UHGV virus genome: UHGV-0084588
Source of the DNA: a virus
Strand: one strand, 5' to 3'
DNA length: 64,000 bases
Numbering within the stretch: the stretch's first letter is position 1; each line of letters begins with the position of its first letter. Below the pieces are notes generated by a model, which had not been told where the DNA came from, searched no databases, and worked only from the letters and a program-made list of their open reading frames with translations. The translations under genes and the position numbers were made by a program. Positions 16,949-54,523 of the stretch are shown piece after piece.

Positions 16949-18055
16949 ATGTTAGAAAAAACGTTTGAGACAAGCGTTGTCTCTTTCCTCTCCAGACTTC
17001 CCATGCTGTTTCGTTCGCGTGCGGAGTCGATGGAGGAATTTAACTCAGTGCTCTATAACGAGCACATTACCTTAGTCGAACAAAGCCTGCTGGGTTTAGA
17101 TTACCTTCCGGGAATTCTGGAGAAAATCCAAATTTTGCTGGCAGGAAACCAATTAACGGCTATCTCACTGTTAACCGGTGTACCGGATGTTGACATTATC
17201 GGTACCCTGGATCAGGTCAGCACACGTCGTAGTGCGCTTGATAACGCAGTCCGCACCGGTTCCCGCTTAGCAGCGCTTGCAGTCGGCGAATCTGCCCGTT
17301 ATGGTTTACCATCATACGATAAAATCGGCATTGCAGTCGGCGAATCTGCCCGACGGGTCGCCCAGGAATCAAAAGGTTCGGTCAGTGGCGGGAAAGGTGA
17401 TCCGATTAAACAGCTTTTCGATCAAGAAGGGTTGTCCAACGGGAAGATGTTCTCAGTAACATTCGAACGTGACGGTAATAAAGTCGAACTCCCAATGCGC
17501 CTACGTTTGGATGTGAAATCCTTACCGACCGAACAAATTGAAACGCTGATTGCGTTCAGTGACCAGACGAAAACATTCTGGGAACGCTGGCTGCGTGCAC
17601 GTGTTGGCGCGTTGAGTTACGTAAAAGACATCGCGTTCTGTAACGACCTGGTAGAAGAATATCGTAAGAACCGTTATCGCGATAAGTCCGGTTATTACCG
17701 TAAGATGATGGAGAAGAAGAACGGTAACTGGTTGTCTGGTTTGCTGTCTCTGGCACCGTCTATCAATAACGCTTCTTCCGTCATGGTGGTCTCTCAAGAC
17801 ACAATCGACGGCTTGACCGCACAGCTAGGTGGCGAATTCGACGATTTCAATATTCGTCAACGTGTATTCAAAGACACCCTGACTGTCTACTATGTTGTTG
17901 TGGACACCACCTGGAATCGTGTCACTATTTATACCCGTGGTCAGAATGGCTCTCAGGAACTCGATAAATCTGACTTTAGTAAATCGAAGTCTGGTAGCGC
18001 CGATGTGAATAAAATCATCGAAGCGTATCGCTCTGGCGCTCAGCCAGTTCTTTAA
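16949..18055 (+). CDS. hypothetical protein
   Basis: 368-aa ORF; contains internal 20-bp direct repeat encoding AVGESAR twice. Confidence 0.7.
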   Translation: MLEKTFETSVVSFLSRLPMLFRSRAESMEEFNSVLYNEHITLVEQSLLGLDYLPGILEKIQILLAGNQLTAISLLTGVPDVDIIGTLDQVSTRRSALDNAVRTGSRLAALAVGESARYGLPSYDKIGIAVGESARRVAQESKGSVSGGKGDPIKQLFDQEGLSNGKMFSVTFERDGNKVELPMRLRLDVKSLPTEQIETLIAFSDQTKTFWERWLRARVGALSYVKDIAFCNDLVEEYRKNRYRDKSGYYRKMMEKKNGNWLSGLLSLAPSINNASSVMVVSQDTIDGLTAQLGGEFDDFNIRQRVFKDTLTVYYVVVDTTWNRVTIYTRGQNGSQELDKSDFSKSKSGSADVNKIIEAYRSGAQPVL

Positions 18056-19018: not shown

Positions 19019-19579
19019 ATGTTTGAGCACGATAGTCCAGAATTTAATGTTGCTGTAGAGCGCATTAAATCCTACATGTCGATTTTATCGAAAAACCCAA
19101 TCGACACACACGATGACGAAGTTATTCACAAAACGCTGGAAGCCGCCGCCGTTGTTTTACCGTATTTTCGTCTGATGGCTGCGGATTCTTTGCAGCAAGT
19201 ATTATATGACGAATATCCGCAGGTCGGATTTACCTTTAATACGTTTTATAACGAAAGCGTAGCCTTCCTGCTGGATGGTAAGCGACGTAATGTGACGTTA
19301 GGGCAGTGGTCGACTTTGCTGTCGTCGTATATGAACGATGTTCGTAACACGAAGAATGTTGAACAGACGGGTGCATTAGGCTCGCGTCTGTTAGCTGCTG
19401 CGTTTGGTCGCCGAGGTACTGTACGTAATATGGGCTCCGCTCACCAATCCATTGAGTGTAGCAAACGTCTTTTATCTTATGCAGACCATGAACTGCTGGC
19501 ACGCTGGATGACACGCCCGAACGGGTTGTCCGACATGATCTCGTCGTTAGCAGTGTTTTTGAAAATCGCACGTCCCTAA
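19019..19579 (+). CDS. hypothetical protein
   Basis: 186-aa ORF, GGAGAGG SD upstream. Confidence 0.65.
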   Translation: MFEHDSPEFNVAVERIKSYMSILSKNPIDTHDDEVIHKTLEAAAVVLPYFRLMAADSLQQVLYDEYPQVGFTFNTFYNESVAFLLDGKRRNVTLGQWSTLLSSYMNDVRNTKNVEQTGALGSRLLAAAFGRRGTVRNMGSAHQSIECSKRLLSYADHELLARWMTRPNGLSDMISSLAVFLKIARP

Positions 19580-19638
19580 GGGGGCCCCTCATTCTAGGGG
19601 CGTGTAATTGGGTTATATAACCAAAGGAAATAAACGAA

Positions 19639-20910
19639 ATGGCAAATTTCGCAAAAACTCGCGCCGCTCGTGAATCGATGGAAGCGGCCGATGAAGTAAT
19701 CGACGGTATCAGCAACGTTGAACCGGCAGAAGAGAACCTGGACGTCCAACTTGCGGACGTTGCATCTATCGACGGTCAGCTCGATCAGCTGGAAACCGAC
19801 GGTGAAACCCTGGCTGCCGATACCGAGCGTACTGAAGACGCTATCGAACAGGCGGAAGAAGCCGTTGCTAACGGTGAAGAAATGCCGGAAGAAGCGGTTG
19901 CCCTGCACGAAGTGGCACAGGAATCCATCGCACGTCGTTGGTGCCTGGAACGTACTAAACTGGCTCGCGAATCCTATCGTCGTGGTCGTGGTATGACTGC
20001 TGCTGCCCAGGAAGGTTGGAAAGAAACCCTGAAAGATCTTTACGATCGTTTCATTCAGTTCTGTAAAGAAGTGATTGCGAAGATCAAAGACCTGAAACTG
20101 AAATATTTCAACGTCGGTAAGACTGCACAGAAACGTGCGAAGAAATATCAGGAAATGCTGCGTAAGCTGGGCAAACAGAAGAAAGATGAGATCTCCGGTG
20201 GCTTTATCACCAAGCTGTCCATCGAAGGTAAATTCGATGCTGCTGGCTCCATCGCTATTGCGAAAGAAGTTACCGCTGGTAAAGCTAAAGGTTCCATCAG
20301 TGTTCTGGAAAAACAAGCTGGCGAAGCTGTAACTGCTGTTGCCAAAGGTGACGATGACGCATTCAAAGCGATGCGTGGCGATCAGCCGGTAGAACTGTTT
20401 GGTAAAGCTGCGTCTAAACTGCGCTCTCTGCCGAACTTTGAAAAAGGTGATGCGTCTAAACTGCTGGCTCTGCCGGGTAACGCATACGTCCAGGCTGGTA
20501 CTAAAGAACTGGCTGGCGGCCACAAGTTCACCGCAATTGCATTCATGAGCACTGGCGACGCTTCTGACGATAAAGACGTGAAAACTCCGTCTGTTTCTGA
20601 AATGGCTGGTGCTGCTTCTGCTCTGGAAGCGATCGGTAAAGGCTTCGAAGCTGTACTGAAAGATTTCCGTGCTTATGACGCCGAAATCGTGAAGCTGCAA
20701 CAGGCTGCTGAGAAAGCTGCTAACGCGCTGAACAACGAAAAAGACGAAAGCAAATGGGATGGCCTGCGTAACGCACGTCAAGCTGCTGATTGGTCTGTTA
20801 AGAACTACCAGACCCTGAACCGCGCCGTTAGCTATGTTGCTAACACCGTTATTAGCGGTCTGAACGGCTACCTGGGTGCTGGTATCGGTGCTTACGAAAA
20901 GTCTAAATAA
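19639..20910 (+). CDS. abundant phage protein, paralog A (possible high-copy head or internal protein)
   Basis: 423 aa; codon-optimised; acidic N-terminal ~95 aa ending at conserved VAQES; paralogous to next gene (shared N-terminus, KLGKQKKDEISGGFI core, C-terminus LNGYLGAGIGAYEKSK). Confidence 0.8.
   Translation: MANFAKTRAARESMEAADEVIDGISNVEPAEENLDVQLADVASIDGQLDQLETDGETLAADTERTEDAIEQAEEAVANGEEMPEEAVALHEVAQESIARRWCLERTKLARESYRRGRGMTAAAQEGWKETLKDLYDRFIQFCKEVIAKIKDLKLKYFNVGKTAQKRAKKYQEMLRKLGKQKKDEISGGFITKLSIEGKFDAAGSIAIAKEVTAGKAKGSISVLEKQAGEAVTAVAKGDDDAFKAMRGDQPVELFGKAASKLRSLPNFEKGDASKLLALPGNAYVQAGTKELAGGHKFTAIAFMSTGDASDDKDVKTPSVSEMAGAASALEAIGKGFEAVLKDFRAYDAEIVKLQQAAEKAANALNNEKDESKWDGLRNARQAADWSVKNYQTLNRAVSYVANTVISGLNGYLGAGIGAYEKSK
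20161..20195 (+). repeat. 35-bp block identical between tandem paralogs (copy in paralog A)
   Basis: cgtaagctgggcaaacagaagaaagatgagatctc also at 21557-21591. Confidence 0.8.
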
Positions 20911-20955
20911 TAATTTAGATTCGTAGTTCCGTACAGTTCTTGAAATAAATCATCA

Positions 20956-20974
20956 GGGGAACAACGCGTTCCCC
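20956..20974 (+). promoter_or_regulatory. hairpin without T-run between tandem paralogs
   Basis: ggggaac-aacgc-gttcccc, same stem family as terminators 24801 and 58445 but no U-tract; 18 nt before paralog B start. Confidence 0.4.
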
Positions 20975-20992
20975 TTAGAGGAAAAGCTTAAA

Positions 20993-22258
20993 ATGGCGAA
21001 TTTCTACAAAAACAAAATTGCTCGTGAGTCTATGGAGTCTACCGCTACTGTAGTTCCAGACGGCATCGAACTGCCAGCAGAATCCGTAGAAGGTACTCTG
21101 GCCGATATCGAGCATGACACCAAACCGATCGAAGCCCTGGACGCTGACGCTGAACTGCTGGCAGAAGACGGCGACGAAACTGACGCTCAGCTGGATGTTC
21201 TGGATGAAGCTCAGGCCGCTGCTGACGGTGAAGGTGCTGGCGAAGACGGCGAAGACCCGATGGACGCCGAAGAAGATATGCCGGACGACGCTGCGACCGC
21301 GCTGGACGTTGCTCAGGAATCTATCCGTTCTCGTTGGAACTTCGAACACCGTTCTTCTGTTGCTCACGAATCTTACGGTTCTCGTAACCGTCGCCAGGTG
21401 GCTCGTGAATCCCTGTGGGAAGACATTAAAGCCTTCCTGGGCCGTATTCTCGATTGGCTGAAAGAACAAGGCCGTAAACTGAAAGATCGCTGGCTGAAAT
21501 TCCACAACCAGGGTAAATCTATCCAGGCGCGTGCTAAGAAATACGATGAAGTTATTCGTAAGCTGGGCAAACAGAAGAAAGATGAGATCTCTGGTGGCTT
21601 CATCAAGTCTCTGTCTATCGATGGCAAGTTCGTCGGTGATAATATTCCGAAACTGAAAGGTATCCTTAACCAGGTTTCCACATTCTATAGCGCTAAGATG
21701 CCTGCCATGGCCTCTAAAGCTGCTGAAGTGGTTTCCGATGTTACCAAAGGTAACGGTGTTAAAGTTGAAAAACTGAAAGCCGACTTTACCGAACTGTCCA
21801 AACAAGACAGTCTCCAAAACTTCAAACTCGGTAACATGGCAGTGAAAACCGAGTATGACAACGAAGGCGGCTTCAGCTCCACTTTTGTTGAAGCTGAAAA
21901 TAGCGTTGAAACTAGCGTGAAAACTCCGTCTGTTGGCGAACTGGCTAAAATCAATGCTCTCTTCAACGAAGTGGGTAAACAGATCGAGAAGAACGTTCAG
22001 GATTATCGTAAAGTCGAAAGCGCGCGGAAAACTTTTGAAGATAATATCGATAAGCTCCTGAAAGAAGTCGATAAAGTTAAGATCGACGAAAAACCGGAAC
22101 TGACCGAAGGTGTACGTGCTGCCCGTCGTTTCATCACCAGCGTTAACCAGGGCCTGTCTCTGGGTGAGAAGGTTATTGCTTCTACTCAGAAACACCTGGC
22201 CGGTGGTCTGAACGGCTACCTGAGTGCTGGTATCGGCGCTTACGAAAAATCTAAATAA
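20993..22258 (+). CDS. abundant phage protein, paralog B
   Basis: 421 aa; same architecture as paralog A, 35-nt identical DNA block and near-identical last 51 nt; strong terminator follows. Confidence 0.8.
   Translation: MANFYKNKIARESMESTATVVPDGIELPAESVEGTLADIEHDTKPIEALDADAELLAEDGDETDAQLDVLDEAQAAADGEGAGEDGEDPMDAEEDMPDDAATALDVAQESIRSRWNFEHRSSVAHESYGSRNRRQVARESLWEDIKAFLGRILDWLKEQGRKLKDRWLKFHNQGKSIQARAKKYDEVIRKLGKQKKDEISGGFIKSLSIDGKFVGDNIPKLKGILNQVSTFYSAKMPAMASKAAEVVSDVTKGNGVKVEKLKADFTELSKQDSLQNFKLGNMAVKTEYDNEGGFSSTFVEAENSVETSVKTPSVGELAKINALFNEVGKQIEKNVQDYRKVESARKTFEDNIDKLLKEVDKVKIDEKPELTEGVRAARRFITSVNQGLSLGEKVIASTQKHLAGGLNGYLSAGIGAYEKSK
21557..21591 (+). repeat. 35-bp block identical between tandem paralogs (copy in paralog B)
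   Basis: Identical to 20161-20195; last 51 nt of both genes also near-identical. Confidence 0.8.
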
Positions 22259-22276
22259 TCTCTGATTGTTTAGTAA

Positions 22277-22322
22277 GAGAACCACCCTGTAATGGGGTGG
22301 TTCTCTCTTTTCTTTTTTTTTT
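22277..22322 (+). terminator. strong rho-independent terminator
   Basis: 11-bp stem gagaaccaccc/gggtggttctc followed by tcttttcttttttttttt. Confidence 0.8.
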
Positions 22323-22339
22323 CGATTAAAAACAATTTC

Positions 22340-22378
22340 AGATATATATTACCTAGGTGAGATTACACAGTAATCTCT
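22340..22378 (+). promoter_or_regulatory. phage early-promoter-like element with downstream hairpin, copy 1
   Basis: AGATATATattacctagGTGAGA; contains TATATTAC; stem gagattac/gtaatctc; 35 nt upstream of CDS 22413; follows a terminator. Confidence 0.55.
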
Positions 22379-22412
22379 TTACGACTTGTTTATTACGTTT
22401 AGGAGAAATATC

Positions 22413-23054
22413 ATGAGCCGCATTAATTTAACTGATTTCGTTGATGGTGTTGTGTCTATGGAGAAAGGCACCGTTACGATGGTGGCACCGAATAGTAAAG
22501 TTGTTATTTTAAATCCGGTAGAACTGATTTCTATTTCTACCTGGTTGCGTTTACTTTCTGATAAGAAACCTAAAGACCAAGCGAAGGGCGGGTTGTTAGT
22601 AGGTCCACGCGAGTTTGTTTTCAAAGACATAACCCAAGATAAACTGGACAGTATTGCTAAAGAACTGAACGGCAAGCATAAAACCCGCGACATCGGGAGT
22701 ACCGAACATGACGGTGTAACGTACCATGCATTTCTTGATAGTCACGTAGCATTGCGTGAAAAAGAAAATGGGGTGTACGAATCAGTTTGTTTCTTTCATT
22801 TAATCGCACCAACAGAAAACGATGCTGTGTATGGCACTGTTGAAAAATCGGCGGAAGCTGTTATGGAAACGGTGTCAGAACTTGTAGAAGGGATGAAAAG
22901 AATCCCACGTGTGTTGAAGGTTACTGATGGTGCTATCGATTGTTTTAAATTATTGCCCTTAATAGCTAGTAAAGAATACGAAGTTGAGAACACGTTTGGG
23001 CTATTCGAAATTAGTCTTTCGGAAGCAGTTGTTACTTTCTTCGAAGCTTTATAA
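22413..23054 (+). CDS. hypothetical protein (putative early gene)
   Basis: ATG 22413 with AGGAG SD; preceded by conserved promoter-like element 22340-22378; terminator after stop. Confidence 0.7.
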   Translation: MSRINLTDFVDGVVSMEKGTVTMVAPNSKVVILNPVELISISTWLRLLSDKKPKDQAKGGLLVGPREFVFKDITQDKLDSIAKELNGKHKTRDIGSTEHDGVTYHAFLDSHVALREKENGVYESVCFFHLIAPTENDAVYGTVEKSAEAVMETVSELVEGMKRIPRVLKVTDGAIDCFKLLPLIASKEYEVENTFGLFEISLSEAVVTFFEAL

Positions 23055-34134: not shown

Positions 34135-34659
34135 ATGCAAATTCGTTTTAGTCCACCGTGGGAAGTTCAACCTAACATAGATAAAGGCGCTGCCGTTAAA
34201 AGTATAGAATTGCTCCAGGCAGGGTTCTTTAACTGGTTATATGACTGTCCGAATGGTTTCAGTTCTATCATCTTACCTGAAGTAAGTCGTTCTGCTATTT
34301 ATAAAGCACTGATGGCTCCGCCTGTGCTTCCAGGTAAATATTATGATCAGGTGTTACGTCTGGTCGAATCAGGCGAAAAGGTTTCCCTTGACGATTTATA
34401 TGGGGAAACAATTCCTTGTCGCGTACGTTGGGTGTTTACTCAACGTGGTGATACGATTGTGGCGTCATTTGCAGAAGCAAAGTCCGGTTCGGGTTTTTCT
34501 TCGGGTGAAGACCACGCTGCGAAAAAGATGTTCTGCGCAGAACTTTTTAAATATATGCGTACCAAGACTCGCGTCGTGGATGACTGCTTCAGTACCTCAA
34601 CGCAGTTTGCCGCTAACGAAGTGCTGACGCAATTATACGCATGTCATTTATCTCATTAA
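34135..34659 (+). CDS. hypothetical protein
   Basis: 174-aa ORF immediately upstream of putative capsid gene. Confidence 0.65.
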   Translation: MQIRFSPPWEVQPNIDKGAAVKSIELLQAGFFNWLYDCPNGFSSIILPEVSRSAIYKALMAPPVLPGKYYDQVLRLVESGEKVSLDDLYGETIPCRVRWVFTQRGDTIVASFAEAKSGSGFSSGEDHAAKKMFCAELFKYMRTKTRVVDDCFSTSTQFAANEVLTQLYACHLSH

Positions 34660-34671
34660 GGTATTAAACAA

Positions 34672-36966
34672 ATGAAAGATACCCGAATCTCTAATCTGGA
34701 GAAACTCGTACAAGCTGGTAACTCGCTGGTACAAAGCGTCATTAGTAACAACAGTGCTGGCGAAATGTGGAACACCATCGTTGCTGGTGAATCTGTACGT
34801 AGCAACACGAAAGTTTTTGGTACCCTGCGTGACGACGCTGCACAGCACTACGCAAACGCGTTTGCTGGCGGTAAGAAAATGTCCCACGCTGCGGAAGTTG
34901 CTTCTGCAATGATTCTGGGTGCTGCTGGTCACGGTATGGACCTGCAAGAAAAAGTAGCGCAAGAATACGCTAAACCAGAATTCCATAGCCGTTTTAACCT
35001 GGACGTTGCGATTCCTGGTTCCCAAGCTGGTAACGGCGACTGGGGCAAAGAGCGTATGGTTGTCGCTCAGGAATACTACACCAACAAAGACTACGACAAA
35101 AACCTGGGTCTGACCTGGACGCTGAACGTACGTGCTCTGGAAACTCAGTCTCGTTTCGCTGAGACTCTGTTCCCGACCATTACCGTTGACACCAACGATG
35201 TTGGTATTACCGTACGTACCAAAGTGACCACCGTTTCTCGCGGTGTAATGAACGCACTGCTGAGCAAAGACGTTGTTGAAGATCATCGTCGTCCGCTGCA
35301 CAACGCACTGACCGACCACACCGTTCTCCAGGACGAAGCGATCAACATCGTTCCTTACGTAATGGAAACCGGTGAAAACGCTGAATACTTCGTAAGCGAA
35401 GATCTGGTGCCGAACGAATCTGTTCGCCTGGGCCGTGTACCTCCGTACCCGACTAACTACCTGAGCTTTGCTAAAGACACTCTGAACCTGTTCCAGCTGT
35501 CTGCGCATCCGGGTATCGTTCAGGAAGGTTACGACGAAACTGATGAAATCGCACCGGGTTGTGCTCTGGGCAGCCTGCTGATTTCTGTACGTAAACCGAC
35601 CGAAGAAGCGAAAGCAGGTAAGTTCATCAAACTGCACGTTCGTGACATGCAGTTCGCAACCTTCCAGCGTCCTGCTGAAGGTGATGGCCGTGAGCTGGTA
35701 CTGCAATTCCGTCGTACTGCGTTCTCTCTGAACGCGAAAACTACCGACTGGACTGGTGCGGCTATTCCGGCACTGCAAGCGCTGGGTCAGAACTCTTACA
35801 CCCTGCGTTATGTGATCACCATCAACATGTCTCTGTTCACTACCGGTCAGTTCGGTGGTAAAGTTGACATCGCTGGTCACAAACTGGAAATCGAAGGTCT
35901 GTACGACGCTACCGGTAACAAAGTTGATACCAAATCTGGTACCGGCAAAGTTATCCTGGACGGTCTGAAACTTGAACTGATGGGCTGGCGCTTCGATGGT
36001 ACTCGTACCAACGAAAACCGTCGTACCCAGGGTCTGCTGCTTGACCCAATCTGGGAACAAGAAAACTACAAACTGCAATACGGTTCTCCGATTCTGACCA
36101 AGTCTCCGGTTGGCGTTGAATACGACGACACCGAACGTCTGGACGACCTGATTTCCGCAGTTAACATCCGTAACGAACAGCTGGCTATCACTCAGACGCT
36201 GTCTTACACCGAAGCGGTACGTAACGCTGCTGCAAGCATGATCACTCCGTGGGACAAACCGGCCATTCGTGGTCTGGGCCGTCACTGGGTTGCTCCGTGG
36301 TTCAAAGAGTCTGACTACAACGTTGATGAAGTTGTACAGTCCCTGGATACCAAAGATGCACTGATCAACGCTCGTCAGGGCCTGGTACAGCGTATCGGTA
36401 ATCAGGTAACTCAGGCTATCCAGGAATCTCGCTTCATTCCTGCGCTGCGTCTGTACACCGCCGATCCGGACATTCTGCCGAAAGTTGTTATTGCAACTGA
36501 CGAACCGACTGCATCTATGCTGCTGCTGGTACAGGGCGACCAACGTCTGCTGGGCGATCGCTACGAATACGAAGTGATCACCACCAACGATGACCGCTGG
36601 CGTATCTACAACGCAGCTGACGGTTCCTGGACTCGTCGTCTGCAATGGTTCCTGAAAGTTCCGACTGCGGACGATGGTTCCTACAACGTGCTGAACTGGG
36701 GTAACCACTTCTGGTCTCCGATCATGGTTACTAACATCAACATTCAGCGTAACGGCTCTACCTCTAAAGAGCTGGCCGTACAGCCGCGCAACGCACACAT
36801 CTGCCACTGCCCGATCACTGGTCTGATCTGGGTTAAAGGCATCACCAAACTGGTTGAAGAAAAACTGGCTTACAATGTTTCTGTTGAACAGAACGGTCAG
36901 AAGCAAACCGACGGTGGTGTAGCAGGTAACGTTGCTGGCGATGGCAAAGCTGCTGCTGGTAAGTAA
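34672..36966 (+). CDS. putative major capsid protein (764 aa)
   Basis: Strongly optimised codons imply very high expression; size fits ~750-aa capsid proteins of phiKZ-like phages; AQE motifs at aa 96-98 and 132-134; strong terminator after stop; tail sheath or shell protein not excluded. Confidence 0.5.
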   Translation: MKDTRISNLEKLVQAGNSLVQSVISNNSAGEMWNTIVAGESVRSNTKVFGTLRDDAAQHYANAFAGGKKMSHAAEVASAMILGAAGHGMDLQEKVAQEYAKPEFHSRFNLDVAIPGSQAGNGDWGKERMVVAQEYYTNKDYDKNLGLTWTLNVRALETQSRFAETLFPTITVDTNDVGITVRTKVTTVSRGVMNALLSKDVVEDHRRPLHNALTDHTVLQDEAINIVPYVMETGENAEYFVSEDLVPNESVRLGRVPPYPTNYLSFAKDTLNLFQLSAHPGIVQEGYDETDEIAPGCALGSLLISVRKPTEEAKAGKFIKLHVRDMQFATFQRPAEGDGRELVLQFRRTAFSLNAKTTDWTGAAIPALQALGQNSYTLRYVITINMSLFTTGQFGGKVDIAGHKLEIEGLYDATGNKVDTKSGTGKVILDGLKLELMGWRFDGTRTNENRRTQGLLLDPIWEQENYKLQYGSPILTKSPVGVEYDDTERLDDLISAVNIRNEQLAITQTLSYTEAVRNAAASMITPWDKPAIRGLGRHWVAPWFKESDYNVDEVVQSLDTKDALINARQGLVQRIGNQVTQAIQESRFIPALRLYTADPDILPKVVIATDEPTASMLLLVQGDQRLLGDRYEYEVITTNDDRWRIYNAADGSWTRRLQWFLKVPTADDGSYNVLNWGNHFWSPIMVTNINIQRNGSTSKELAVQPRNAHICHCPITGLIWVKGITKLVEEKLAYNVSVEQNGQKQTDGGVAGNVAGDGKAAAGK

Positions 36967-53389: not shown

Positions 53390-54523
53390 ATGTCAACATT
53401 AGATTCCGATTTAGAAGTCCTTTGCGATGACTACGATCGATTGGTCGCGTTAGAATCGCTTAATGTTAAAGACAATTATCCGACGGTTGTCGCTATCCGA
53501 AAACGGTGGGCTTTAGATGATGTCCACGTTGCGCTGGAGTCTGCAGCGATGATGGAACGCGCGCAATTTGTTGCGGACACCGAGCCTTACGCAGGGGTAG
53601 GTAAAGCGGTCGCACGCGCGACAGGCAGAGCGGTTAAAGGAGTTGGACGCGTTGCTGGAAAAGCAGCGGTGGCAGGAGCCAAAGCGTCTGGAAAAGTCGC
53701 AGGTAAACATTCTAAGCAGCTGGCGTTACGTTTTATCGACTTCGCGGAAGCCGCCGGTAAAGAAGTTATTAATGAACTGAAAGAAGCGACGTCCAAAGCA
53801 TCGTCGTTAGAGCGCAAGCTACAGAAGTTAGAAGCACGTTTAAGTTTACTCGGTATCAAGGACACTTTAAAACCGGTTGACTGTGACACGGGAAGTTGGA
53901 CAACCAAAGTTTGTTTAGAAGACAAACCTAACGTAAAAGCATGTATTGAGTTCAGTAAGAACCTGAGCGCAATGGATGCGATGGTCAACGAGTATACCGT
54001 TAAAACACGTACGTTAATCGGTAAGAGCAAGAAAGTTACCGAAAGCGGTTTGGAGAAAGTGGGTCGGTCAACGAACTGGGCGATTAAACGAAGCGCAGGG
54101 CTGTTCGGTATTATCGATCCGTTTAAAACGGTGAAAGCATATCCGTGGCCAGGTAACGTGGTGGTCGTTGAACACGACAGCGGTAAGATTGAGTGGGCGA
54201 TTGCCCGTGACGGTGATTTTGGTCACACGATCAAATCTCTGAACTTGCACGAAATCGGTTCAGCTCTTGATGCTGTTAGAAACATTATCCGGGCGTTACG
54301 TCAGCGTGGTACGAAACGACGTAGCGTTGGGTATACAGGAATTTATGATGAAATTCAACGTATGCGTAAGGAACTTAAGTCGCTTGAAGGGCGGGAGTTA
54401 CGCGACGCTACCGTACGTTATAAAAACGCACTGCGTTTAGAAGATGCGTTTACTACCTCGTTAGTGCGCGTTGCGGAAGGATTACTGGAATGGTGCAGGT
54501 TGTCGCTGATTGAGGTTAAATAA
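53390..54523 (+). CDS. hypothetical protein with Gly/Ala/Lys-rich repeat
   Basis: 377 aa; low-complexity GVGKAVARATGRAVKGVGRVAGKAAVAGAKASGKVAGK. Confidence 0.65.
   Translation: MSTLDSDLEVLCDDYDRLVALESLNVKDNYPTVVAIRKRWALDDVHVALESAAMMERAQFVADTEPYAGVGKAVARATGRAVKGVGRVAGKAAVAGAKASGKVAGKHSKQLALRFIDFAEAAGKEVINELKEATSKASSLERKLQKLEARLSLLGIKDTLKPVDCDTGSWTTKVCLEDKPNVKACIEFSKNLSAMDAMVNEYTVKTRTLIGKSKKVTESGLEKVGRSTNWAIKRSAGLFGIIDPFKTVKAYPWPGNVVVVEHDSGKIEWAIARDGDFGHTIKSLNLHEIGSALDAVRNIIRALRQRGTKRRSVGYTGIYDEIQRMRKELKSLEGRELRDATVRYKNALRLEDAFTTSLVRVAEGLLEWCRLSLIEVK

Follow-up and report, generated by a model that had tools for sequence, protein, structure and literature searches.

Two adjacent open reading frames (ORFs) on the + strand of the virus genome UHGV-0084588, gene A at 19639–20910 (423 amino acids, aa) and gene B at 20993–22258 (421 aa), were analysed within a stretch of 64,000 nucleotides (nt), here called the window. 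The encoded proteins are paralogs displaying 36% identity (BLASTP, E=2e-56). An earlier reading of the bare window sequence, referred to below as the original prediction, had given these positions and lengths exactly, and had taken the pair for acidic-propeptide precursors that a prohead protease of the phiKZ type cuts at AxE motifs to give highly abundant proteins of the head interior. Precisely this has been shown experimentally for the orthologous proteins gp53 and gp54 of Salmonella phage SPN3US (PMC5694885, PMC7411985, PMC10052503).

Both proteins match phrog_2497, ‘internal head protein’ (A, E=1e-147; B, E=7e-120), and PF12699 (phiKZ_IP, the phiKZ-like internal head proteins), with 247.6 bits for A and 195.7 bits for B against a cutoff of 27. 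Protein A displays 69–73% aa identity to SPN3US gp53 (69%) and to gp70 of Erwinia phage Asesino. At the nucleotide level the window is ~76% identical to these two phages, and no record of the phage collection is closer to it. Homologs of gp50, gp51 and gp52 precede A and B in the order found in SPN3US (gp50–gp54) and Asesino (gp67–gp71). The order in phiKZ agrees as well, gp89–gp91 being followed by the paralog array gp92–gp97, and the gp52 homolog of the window has a weak match to PF25618 (PhiKZ_gp91). The tandem pair was found in 62 of 62 enterobacterial relatives. Given the family matches, the conserved gene order and the tandem pair in the relatives, we therefore regard it as very probable that gene A is the ortholog of gp53 and gene B that of gp54 in an SPN3US-like (Seoul-like) chimallivirus jumbo phage, a processed tandem pair of PF12699 internal head/ejection protein precursors.

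In SPN3US, gp53 and gp54 (‘paralog family A’) each number more than 600 copies in a head, with a spectral abundance comparable to the major capsid protein's, and are about equally abundant (spectral count per mass of 21.0 and 20.2, respectively; PMC5694885). The bulk of the inner shell (T=1) of protease-deficient capsids is made of them, and this shell is remodelled upon maturation (PMC7552025). The S80 prohead protease gp245 cuts both proteins after A-x-E; in gp245 mutants the propeptides stay intact, and recombinant gp245 cleaves gp53 in vitro (PMC7411985). Cuts mapped by mass spectrometry (MS) lie at ARE-12, AQE-95 and AQE-125 (maturation) in gp53, and at AQE-124 and ARE-137 (maturation) in gp54 (PMC10052503, Table 2). 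The maturation peptides are (E)GWKETLKDLFER for gp53, whose propeptide thus comprises 125 residues, and (E)SLWDDIK for gp54, and the gel-resolved mature species begin at these downstream sites, gp53 at E125↓G (57 spectra) and gp54 at E137↓S (↓ marks the cut).

The window pair shares with gp53/gp54 the gene order, similar lengths (425/419 aa in SPN3US), the MANFxKxxxARES N-terminus, an acidic propeptide, four AxE sites, the maturation peptides and a C-terminal GAYEKSK tail. Three differences were noted. The first 15 residues are identical between gp53 and gp54 but not between A and B; site 3 reads AQE in gp54 and AHE in B; and the identity of A and B over a central 35 nt is confined to the window lineage and its sister genomes from E. 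coli and Enterobacter, unlike SPN3US.

Cleavage sites were compared in an alignment of A and B from 11 genomes (22 orthologs) plus a single Vibrio homolog. All four AxE sites are kept in both paralogs across the 11 genomes, and for every site class a cut is known from MS in at least one SPN3US paralog. Site 1, ARE↓S, lies at E12 in both A (AARE↓S) and B (IARE↓S, after nt 21028), is invariant as ARES in all A and B orthologs and corresponds to the mapped ARE-12 of gp53; it belongs to the shared N-terminus MANF..ARESME that the original prediction described and that is indeed present in both proteins. Site 2, VAQE↓S, lies at E95 in A and E109 in B (after nt 21319); it corresponds to the mapped gp53 AQE-95, and VAQES is nearly invariant across the 22 orthologs, making it the best-conserved AxE site of the family. 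Site 3, A(R/Q/H)E↓SY, lies at E111 in A (LARE↓S) and E126 in B (VAHE↓S, after nt 21370), the latter aligned with gp54 AQE-124. Site 4, the maturation site, reads AAQE-125↓GWKETLKDL in A and VARE-139↓SLWEDIK in B (after nt 21409), aligned with gp53 AQE-125 and gp54 ARE-137, respectively; the SPN3US maturation peptides are thus present in the window as AAQE↓GWKETLKDLYDR (A) and VARE↓SLWEDIK (B).

These sites would divide protein A into a basic N-terminal peptide (residues 1–12, 19639–19674), an acidic segment ending at predicted cut 2 (residues 13–95, 19675–19923, net charge −26, isoelectric point, pI, 4.05), a basic linker containing, from the alignment to gp53, predicted cuts 3 and 4 (residues 96–125, 19924–20013) and a predicted mature protein of 298 aa (residues 126–423, 20014–20907, 32.1 kDa, pI 9.4). 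In protein B, aligned to the mapped sites of gp54, a propeptide with four predicted cuts (residues 1–139, 20993–21409), of which residues 13–109 carry a net charge of −33, would precede a predicted mature protein of 282 aa (residues 140–421, 21410–22255, 31.3 kDa, pI 9.4). Each acidic segment contains a single lysine or arginine and is followed by a basic stretch of 30 residues. The acidic segments terminate exactly where they had been said to, at the VAQES of A (AQE 93–95) and of B (AQE 107–109). The proposal that VAQES is a cleavage site holds in part: it is a genuine cut by homology, because gp53 AQE-95 has been mapped by MS, but it is not the final maturation cut, two further cuts following it. 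On sequence grounds, VAQE↓S closes the acidic segment and not the whole propeptide, and the mature proteins are predicted to start at G126 (A) and S140 (B).

The major capsid protein gene (34672–36966, + strand) carries a comparable signal. Both AQE motifs attributed to its product (residues 96–98 and 132–134) are present, and maturation is predicted to occur at VVAQE-134↓YYTNKD, which in the alignment coincides with ATE-130↓YYTNKD, a mapped site of SPN3US gp75. Upstream of the pair, the gp50 homolog (16949–18055, + strand) contains RVAQE↓S aligned with KVATE↓S of SPN3US gp50, a likely maturation site, together with SRAESME near its N-terminus, akin to the ARESME of A and B. For SPN3US gp50 itself the listed site is ATE-127, but the stated propeptide of 15.8 kDa fits residue 145 of the RefSeq protein (PMC10052503). 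A third, weak PF12699 member of 377 aa lies at 53390–54523 on the + strand (33 bits against the cutoff of 27); it is without the MANF..ARES N-terminus and the acidic segment, and retains a ‘IRKRWALDDVHVALES’ module resembling the linker between sites 2 and 3, as well as two VALE↓S motifs.

Codon usage was compared over 54 genes within the window, using the frequency of optimal codons (Fop) and the effective number of codons (Nc). The three strongest outliers are the capsid gene (Fop 0.87), A (0.84) and B (0.80), all with Nc of 31–36, and the remaining 51 genes have Fop of at most 0.63 and Nc of at least 41. The codon optimisation ascribed to the pair is therefore strongly borne out, and, as a proxy only for copy number in this phage, A and B rank second and third of the 54 genes, next to the capsid gene. 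Long antisense ORFs lie opposite exactly these three most biased genes, at 19594–20781 (395 aa), 20975–22285 (436 aa) and 34648–36906 (752 aa), all on the − strand; most likely they are not real genes and arise because the choice of codons keeps stop codons out of the antisense strand.

The structure of the full-length 423-aa A precursor was modelled with AlphaFold from a 63-sequence alignment (predicted local distance difference test score 84.8, predicted template modelling score 0.83). The model consists of long helices, one running through the acidic segment (34–77) and one across the maturation site (119–175), and a small β domain; the conserved central block (176–190) forms a β-hairpin and the conserved C-terminal tail (419–421) a strand. 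Foldseek searches of this model against BFVD gave 105 matches at E≤0.001, with template modelling (TM) scores of up to 0.82, all of them jumbo-phage internal head or virion proteins. The search of PDB structures gave no significant match of the model to any solved fold, the top Foldseek matches there, of a ClyA-type pore-forming-toxin or TolC-like fold, being noise (E≥0.1, TM≤0.3).

Sequence identity between phiKZ and the window is very low, so that homology has to be sought by profile search. HHalign aligned the window proteins with phiKZ gp93 at 95% probability (E=2e-8), pairing ARE-12↓S13 with SLE-13↓S14 and VAQE-95↓S with GME-119↓S. Comparison with the abundant head proteins of phiKZ- and SPN3US-type phages, as the original prediction suggested, hence yields a site for site match to gp53/gp54 and profile homology to gp93. 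The phiKZ proteins gp93 and its paralogs gp92–97, gp162 and gp163 resemble the window pair in Pfam family, fold, position after the gp89–gp91 homologs, a first cut 12–13 residues in, multiple cuts by an S80 protease and high copy number. They differ in forming an array of at least six paralogs, not two, in a motif that is S/A/G-x-E and not strictly A-x-E, and in a copy number of ~100–200 against the more than 600 of SPN3US. In the E. coli phage Goslar, gp58 and gp53 likewise belong to PF12699 and are high-copy, head-packaged proteins, gp58 being injected into the early infection vesicle; Goslar differs in having one dominant member (~2150 copies) with minor ones, and not an equimolar pair. A structure preprint on Goslar (2026) reports thousands of PF12699 copies per virion and their injection into the early infection vesicle, and calls the role of the protein ‘a key unsolved mystery’.

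The internal proteins of T4 (IPI–III) offer a functional resemblance only. In T4 the prohead protease removes a short N-terminal peptide after a small-x-Glu motif, and the mature protein is basic, is packaged alongside the DNA and is ejected. The T4 propeptides comprise 10–20 residues, without a long acidic segment and without multi-site trimming. The families share no common Pfam or PHROG entry with the window pair: the Pfam and PHROG scans showed no homology to the T4 internal protein families and gave only PF12699 and PHROGs 2497, 6807 and 8282.

Taken with the biology of the relatives, these data suggest the following course of events. A and B would be synthesised late and at very high level, would co-assemble with the major capsid protein and would form most of an inner T=1 shell in the unprocessed capsid, as shown in SPN3US. 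The S80 prohead protease would then cleave each protein four times, at E12, E95, E111 and E125 in A and at E12, E109, E126 and E139 in B, giving a 12-residue basic peptide, an acidic fragment of 83 (A) or 97 (B) residues, a pair of short basic peptides and a mature protein, likewise basic, of ~32 (A) or 31 (B) kDa that would remain in the head alongside the DNA. By analogy with the relatives, the N-terminal peptide would act as a capsid-targeting sequence, and the acidic segment would mask the basic body until the DNA is packaged. This segment may persist as a strap on the capsid's inner face, as residues 14–84 of phiKZ gp93 do, and the mature proteins may be injected with the genome, as reported for the PF12699 proteins of phiKZ and Goslar.

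Several points weigh against parts of this scheme. Every cut in the window proteins is transferred from homologous sites; the VAQE↓S cut has been observed only in the A-type protein gp53, gp54 not showing it; B reads AHE at site 3, and no mapped site has histidine at P2; and E95, E111 and E125 fall inside predicted helices of the AlphaFold model, not in loops. No gene for the S80 protease lies in the 64-kb window; one encoding a protein 80.9% identical to gp245 was seen only in the 91%-identical sister genome NZ_CP134650.1. Injection is only inferred for SPN3US-type proteins, since the reports concern PF12699 proteins of phiKZ and Goslar, and the capsid-strap role rests on one distant homolog, the SPN3US authors generally expecting propeptides to exit the head.

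The fate of the acidic fragment is where an alternative to simple loss of the propeptide survives best. The fragment (residues 13–95 of A, 13–109 of B) would, by analogy with phiKZ, be retained as a strap between neighbouring capsomers on the inner capsid surface. In the 2024 phiKZ capsid structure, gp93 residues 14–84, which start directly after the first protease cut, remain on the inside of the capsid and form an S-shaped strap that links hexamers (PMC11297242). The site-to-site HHalign correspondence therefore maps this strap to the first part of the window acidic segment, although the alignment with gp93 is gap-rich in this region. Mature SPN3US heads contain, according to the SPN3US authors, unusually many peptides from the gp53 propeptide; together with the phiKZ strap, this surplus indicates that the acidic fragment may be a product and not waste. 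Moreover, the propeptide regions are more constrained than the mature bodies, the ratio of nonsynonymous to synonymous divergence (dN/dS) being 0.03–0.10 in both propeptides when the window is compared with three sister genomes, L013 (NZ_CP173450.1), L020 and L021. Against retention stand the low identity between A and B in the acidic segment (42–55% of nt), the additional AxE motifs within it, and the SPN3US-type capsid maps, none of which resolves such a strap. On balance we consider retention of the fragment in this phage possible but somewhat unlikely. Were it true, VAQE↓S would be the C-terminus of a functional polypeptide.

Three predicted structures lie beside and between the two genes. 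Gene A is preceded by a hairpin at 19584–19601 (+ strand; GCCCCT-loop-AGGGGC), just past the stop codon of the gp52-like gene, whose stem is invariant and whose loop is variable in 11 genomes; it has no T-run and is not significant alone (z=−0.8). Over 19570–19606 this hairpin has one 3′ arm (AGGGGCGTG) and two alternative 5′ arms, GCCCCT and CACGTCCCT, the latter of which overlaps the stop codon of the gp52-like gene. Outside the loop its sequence hardly varies among the 11 genomes, and a conserved palindrome, GGTTATA(TA)ACC, comes after it, ~20 nt before the ATG of A. The A–B unit is closed by an intrinsic terminator at 22276–22324 (+ strand), with a stem of 13–14 bp at 22276–22306 and a long T-run, that is more stable than all of 200 shuffled sequences (z=−4.87) and is present after B in 11 of 11 genomes, with differing stems. 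Of the ‘flanking terminators’ that had been proposed, the downstream one is thus canonical and the upstream one is only a hairpin.

Between the genes, at 20955–20975 (+ strand), lies the third element, a stem-loop of the form AGGGGAAC-AACGC-GTTCCCCT with an 8-bp stem. As had been reported from the sequence, it is devoid of a T-run. The stem-loop ends 1 nt ahead of TAGAGGA (20976–20982, + strand), the gene B ribosome-binding site, which is placed 10 nt before the ATG and of which AGAGGA is invariant in 11 of 11 genomes. In these 11 diverse genomes a perfect stem of 7–10 bp ends 0–1 nt before AGAGGA, itself 7–10 nt from the B ATG, and the stem sequences differ, with compensatory changes at nearly every pair. 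With four sister genomes in which it occupies the same place, the stem-loop was found in 15 of the 15 genomes examined. Its thermodynamic stability was discarded as evidence (z=−1.6, not significant), the support coming from covariation; owing to the compensatory changes and constant position, we therefore consider the structure conserved although its stability is unremarkable.

A partial transcription terminator setting the A:B ratio would suit a conserved, covarying stem-loop lying between two genes. However, the lack of a T-run and the roughly equimolar gp53 and gp54 of SPN3US speak against such an attenuator, as does the unremarkable stability, and a stem that always abuts the ribosome-binding site fits an element of messenger RNA (mRNA) processing, stability or translation at least as well. 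Attenuation is therefore judged unlikely, and a putative mRNA processing, stability or translation element is favoured.

Other regulatory signals were sought in the window. TAGAGGA as a recurring window-wide signal was rejected (5 matches against 3.7 expected), and a scan for sigma-70 promoters gave fewer sites than in shuffled sequence, as expected for a phage with its own RNA polymerases. Just after the B terminator, at 22339–22354, the element CAGATATATATTACCT shows full or almost full conservation in the relatives, those of the Machinavirus group having CAGATAGATATTACCT; within it, TATATTAC is what we take to be the phiKZ early-promoter consensus.

We then consider the DNA blocks shared by A and B. 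The 35-nt identical block of the original prediction was confirmed at 20161–20195 in A and 21557–21591 in B (+ strand), encoding RKLGKQKKDEIS within the predicted β-hairpin. The near-identical 3′ ends were confirmed likewise, 51 of the last 54 nt being identical. That such blocks might drive gene conversion or deletion, as had also been proposed, finds support in the sister genomes for conversion only: deletion by unequal crossover would leave large A/B chimeras, and the full-length proteins retrieved included none. Comparison of recombination junctions across related genomes accordingly gave polarised conversion tracts and no deletion chimeras.

The statistical evidence is of mixed strength. 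In 110 comparisons of A with B from different genomes, identical runs in register reach 24 nt at most, against 35 nt in the window. In a codon alignment, A–B identity over the first 15 codons is 0.81 within genomes and 0.68 between genomes, with 0 of 20,000 permutations as extreme, and in the C-terminal tail it is 0.75 and 0.69, respectively (p=1.5e-4); the genomes are phylogenetically related, so these permutation p-values are optimistic. The excess within genomes is weaker in the region of sites 2–3 and, for the central block, is seen in the window genome only. Synonymous evidence for the 35-nt block is modest, 12 of 13 codons being identical against a background of 65% (scan-corrected p=0.059), and strictly ‘concerted’ sites were rejected as proof of conversion, only two being found between the window and the E. 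coli sister, about the chance expectation. As the concerted sites and the run test are only suggestive, the case for conversion therefore rests on the polarised tracts.

Three such tracts were recognised from the aligned alleles. At the N-terminus, the first 47 nt of gene B in L020 are exactly A sequence and the 5′ untranslated region stays B-type; other B alleles differ from A in these 47 nt at 11–13 positions (12 in the window and in the E. coli and Enterobacter sisters). By its sequence, this N-terminus is an A-to-B conversion. In the central block, 55 of 55 B alleles encode KQKKDEIS, and the A alleles are split, 7 of 15 having the B-type sequence and the remaining 8 carrying KQDKDNIS, KQEKDKVS and similar, with those of L020 and L021 keeping the A-type. 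A codon within this block is GAG in both window copies and GAA in both copies of the E. coli and the Enterobacter sisters. The central block was thus probably copied from B to A, with the B copy as probable donor; our first guess of copying from A to B was reversed by the sister genomes. At the C-terminus, window B carries A-type bases at 22214–22237 (+ strand; GGC TAC CTG AGT GCT GGT ATC GGC), where three sister B alleles read GGy TAT ATC TCx GCA GGT ATy GCy. The converted form occurs in 12 of 55 B alleles, one of which matches A completely. The tract thus looks like a conversion from A to B that is confined to the lineage of the window; the B C-terminus of the E. coli sister had been considered the odd one, until the allele of a third sister revealed window B as the converted copy. 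Furthermore, B alleles that are 97–100% identical overall carry different N-termini, so the conversion events are recent and recurrent.

Purifying selection with a shared codon preference, and no gene conversion, would be another account of the identical blocks, which do encode the most conserved residues. The 65% of same-amino-acid codons that are identical between A and B anyway, the two concerted sites and the run test all suit it. It does not, however, accommodate the exact A sequence of the L020 B N-terminus beside a B-type 5′ untranslated region, the differing N-termini of near-identical B alleles, the 7 to 8 split of A alleles at a block uniform in all 55 B alleles, the clustered sites at which the window B C-terminus moved to A states relative to three sister alleles, or a 35-nt run longer than in all 110 between-genome pairs. 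We consider this account very unlikely. The comparison of alleles supports short, bidirectional gene-conversion tracts at three places, namely the N-terminus, the central block and the tail at the C-terminus, and the islands of A–B identity would be kept up jointly by recurrent conversion over short tracts and by selection acting on the modules that the genes share.

Least probable of all, and hardly credible, is that the propeptide is the acidic segment alone, with VAQE↓S as the maturation cut and mature proteins starting at S96 (A) and S110 (B): the acidic segment does end precisely there, at the best-conserved AxE site of the family and one mapped in gp53, but the gel-resolved mature forms of SPN3US begin downstream and the downstream maturation peptides are conserved in A and B.

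The mature bodies have diverged unequally. Over the same three sister comparisons, dN is 0.08–0.26 for mature B (21410–22255) against 0.013–0.10 for mature A (20014–20907), a two- to six-fold faster rate, and dN/dS of mature B is 0.15–0.29. Counts of clusters at 90% identity were not retained as proof of B hypervariability, being partly an artefact, as many clusters are at least 99% identical to window B. The gp51- and gp52-like genes beside the pair are, in L021, nearly identical to those of the window (dS 0.07–0.12), and A and B are not (dS 0.44–0.75), which suggests that the A–B cassette has been exchanged between phages.

Homology to the 91%-identical sister genomes breaks right after gene B. 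An ORF of 213–222 aa at 22386–23054 is replaced by one of 58–59 aa in the E. coli and Enterobacter sisters and L021 (4914–5090 of L013; 5420–5599 of L021), and the next two small genes downstream are only 54–79% identical in the E. coli sister and L020. The break and the divergent small genes therefore place the beginning of a hypervariable early-gene region after gene B.

Brought together, these observations can be read, tentatively and with rather less than even confidence, as a mosaic. The three converted modules, that is the 12–15-residue N-terminal targeting/cleavage peptide, the central KLGKQKKDEISGGF β-hairpin and the C-terminal GLNGY..GAYEKSK tail, would be surfaces by which both proteins dock to one partner, be it the core, the protease or the capsid, homogenised by tracts of ~25–47 nt in both directions. 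The injected B body would be diversified according to host and swapped between otherwise near-identical phages, and the acidic fragment would be the retained strap.

Proteins identical to A, B and the capsid protein are encoded on contigs of ~222–227 kb in assemblies of Shigella, Salmonella, E. coli and Enterobacter isolates, A and B being annotated there as ‘hypothetical proteins’, and the phage is also present in metagenome assemblies. The 91%-identical relatives NZ_CP173450.1 (L013) and NZ_CP134650.1 (L014) were deposited as circular, non-mobilizable ‘plasmids’. Persistent Seoul-like jumbo phages in enterobacterial isolate assemblies have already been described (bioRxiv 10.1101/2024.12.31.630880), and the window phage is one of them. 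The system is accordingly known, and experimentally characterised in a relative; the original prediction was correct in its reading, and not new. The additions made here are modest: a refined cut map, a covarying hairpin and a gene-conversion mosaic.

Apart from the shell proteins, chimallivirus heads contain none more abundant than those of PF12699. The processing map of SPN3US carries over site by site to the persistent Seoul-like phages, which are widespread in Salmonella, Shigella and E. coli isolates, and the alternation of converted modules with a fast-diverging mature B points to the residues that may constitute the targeting signal, the shared interface and the host-facing surface.

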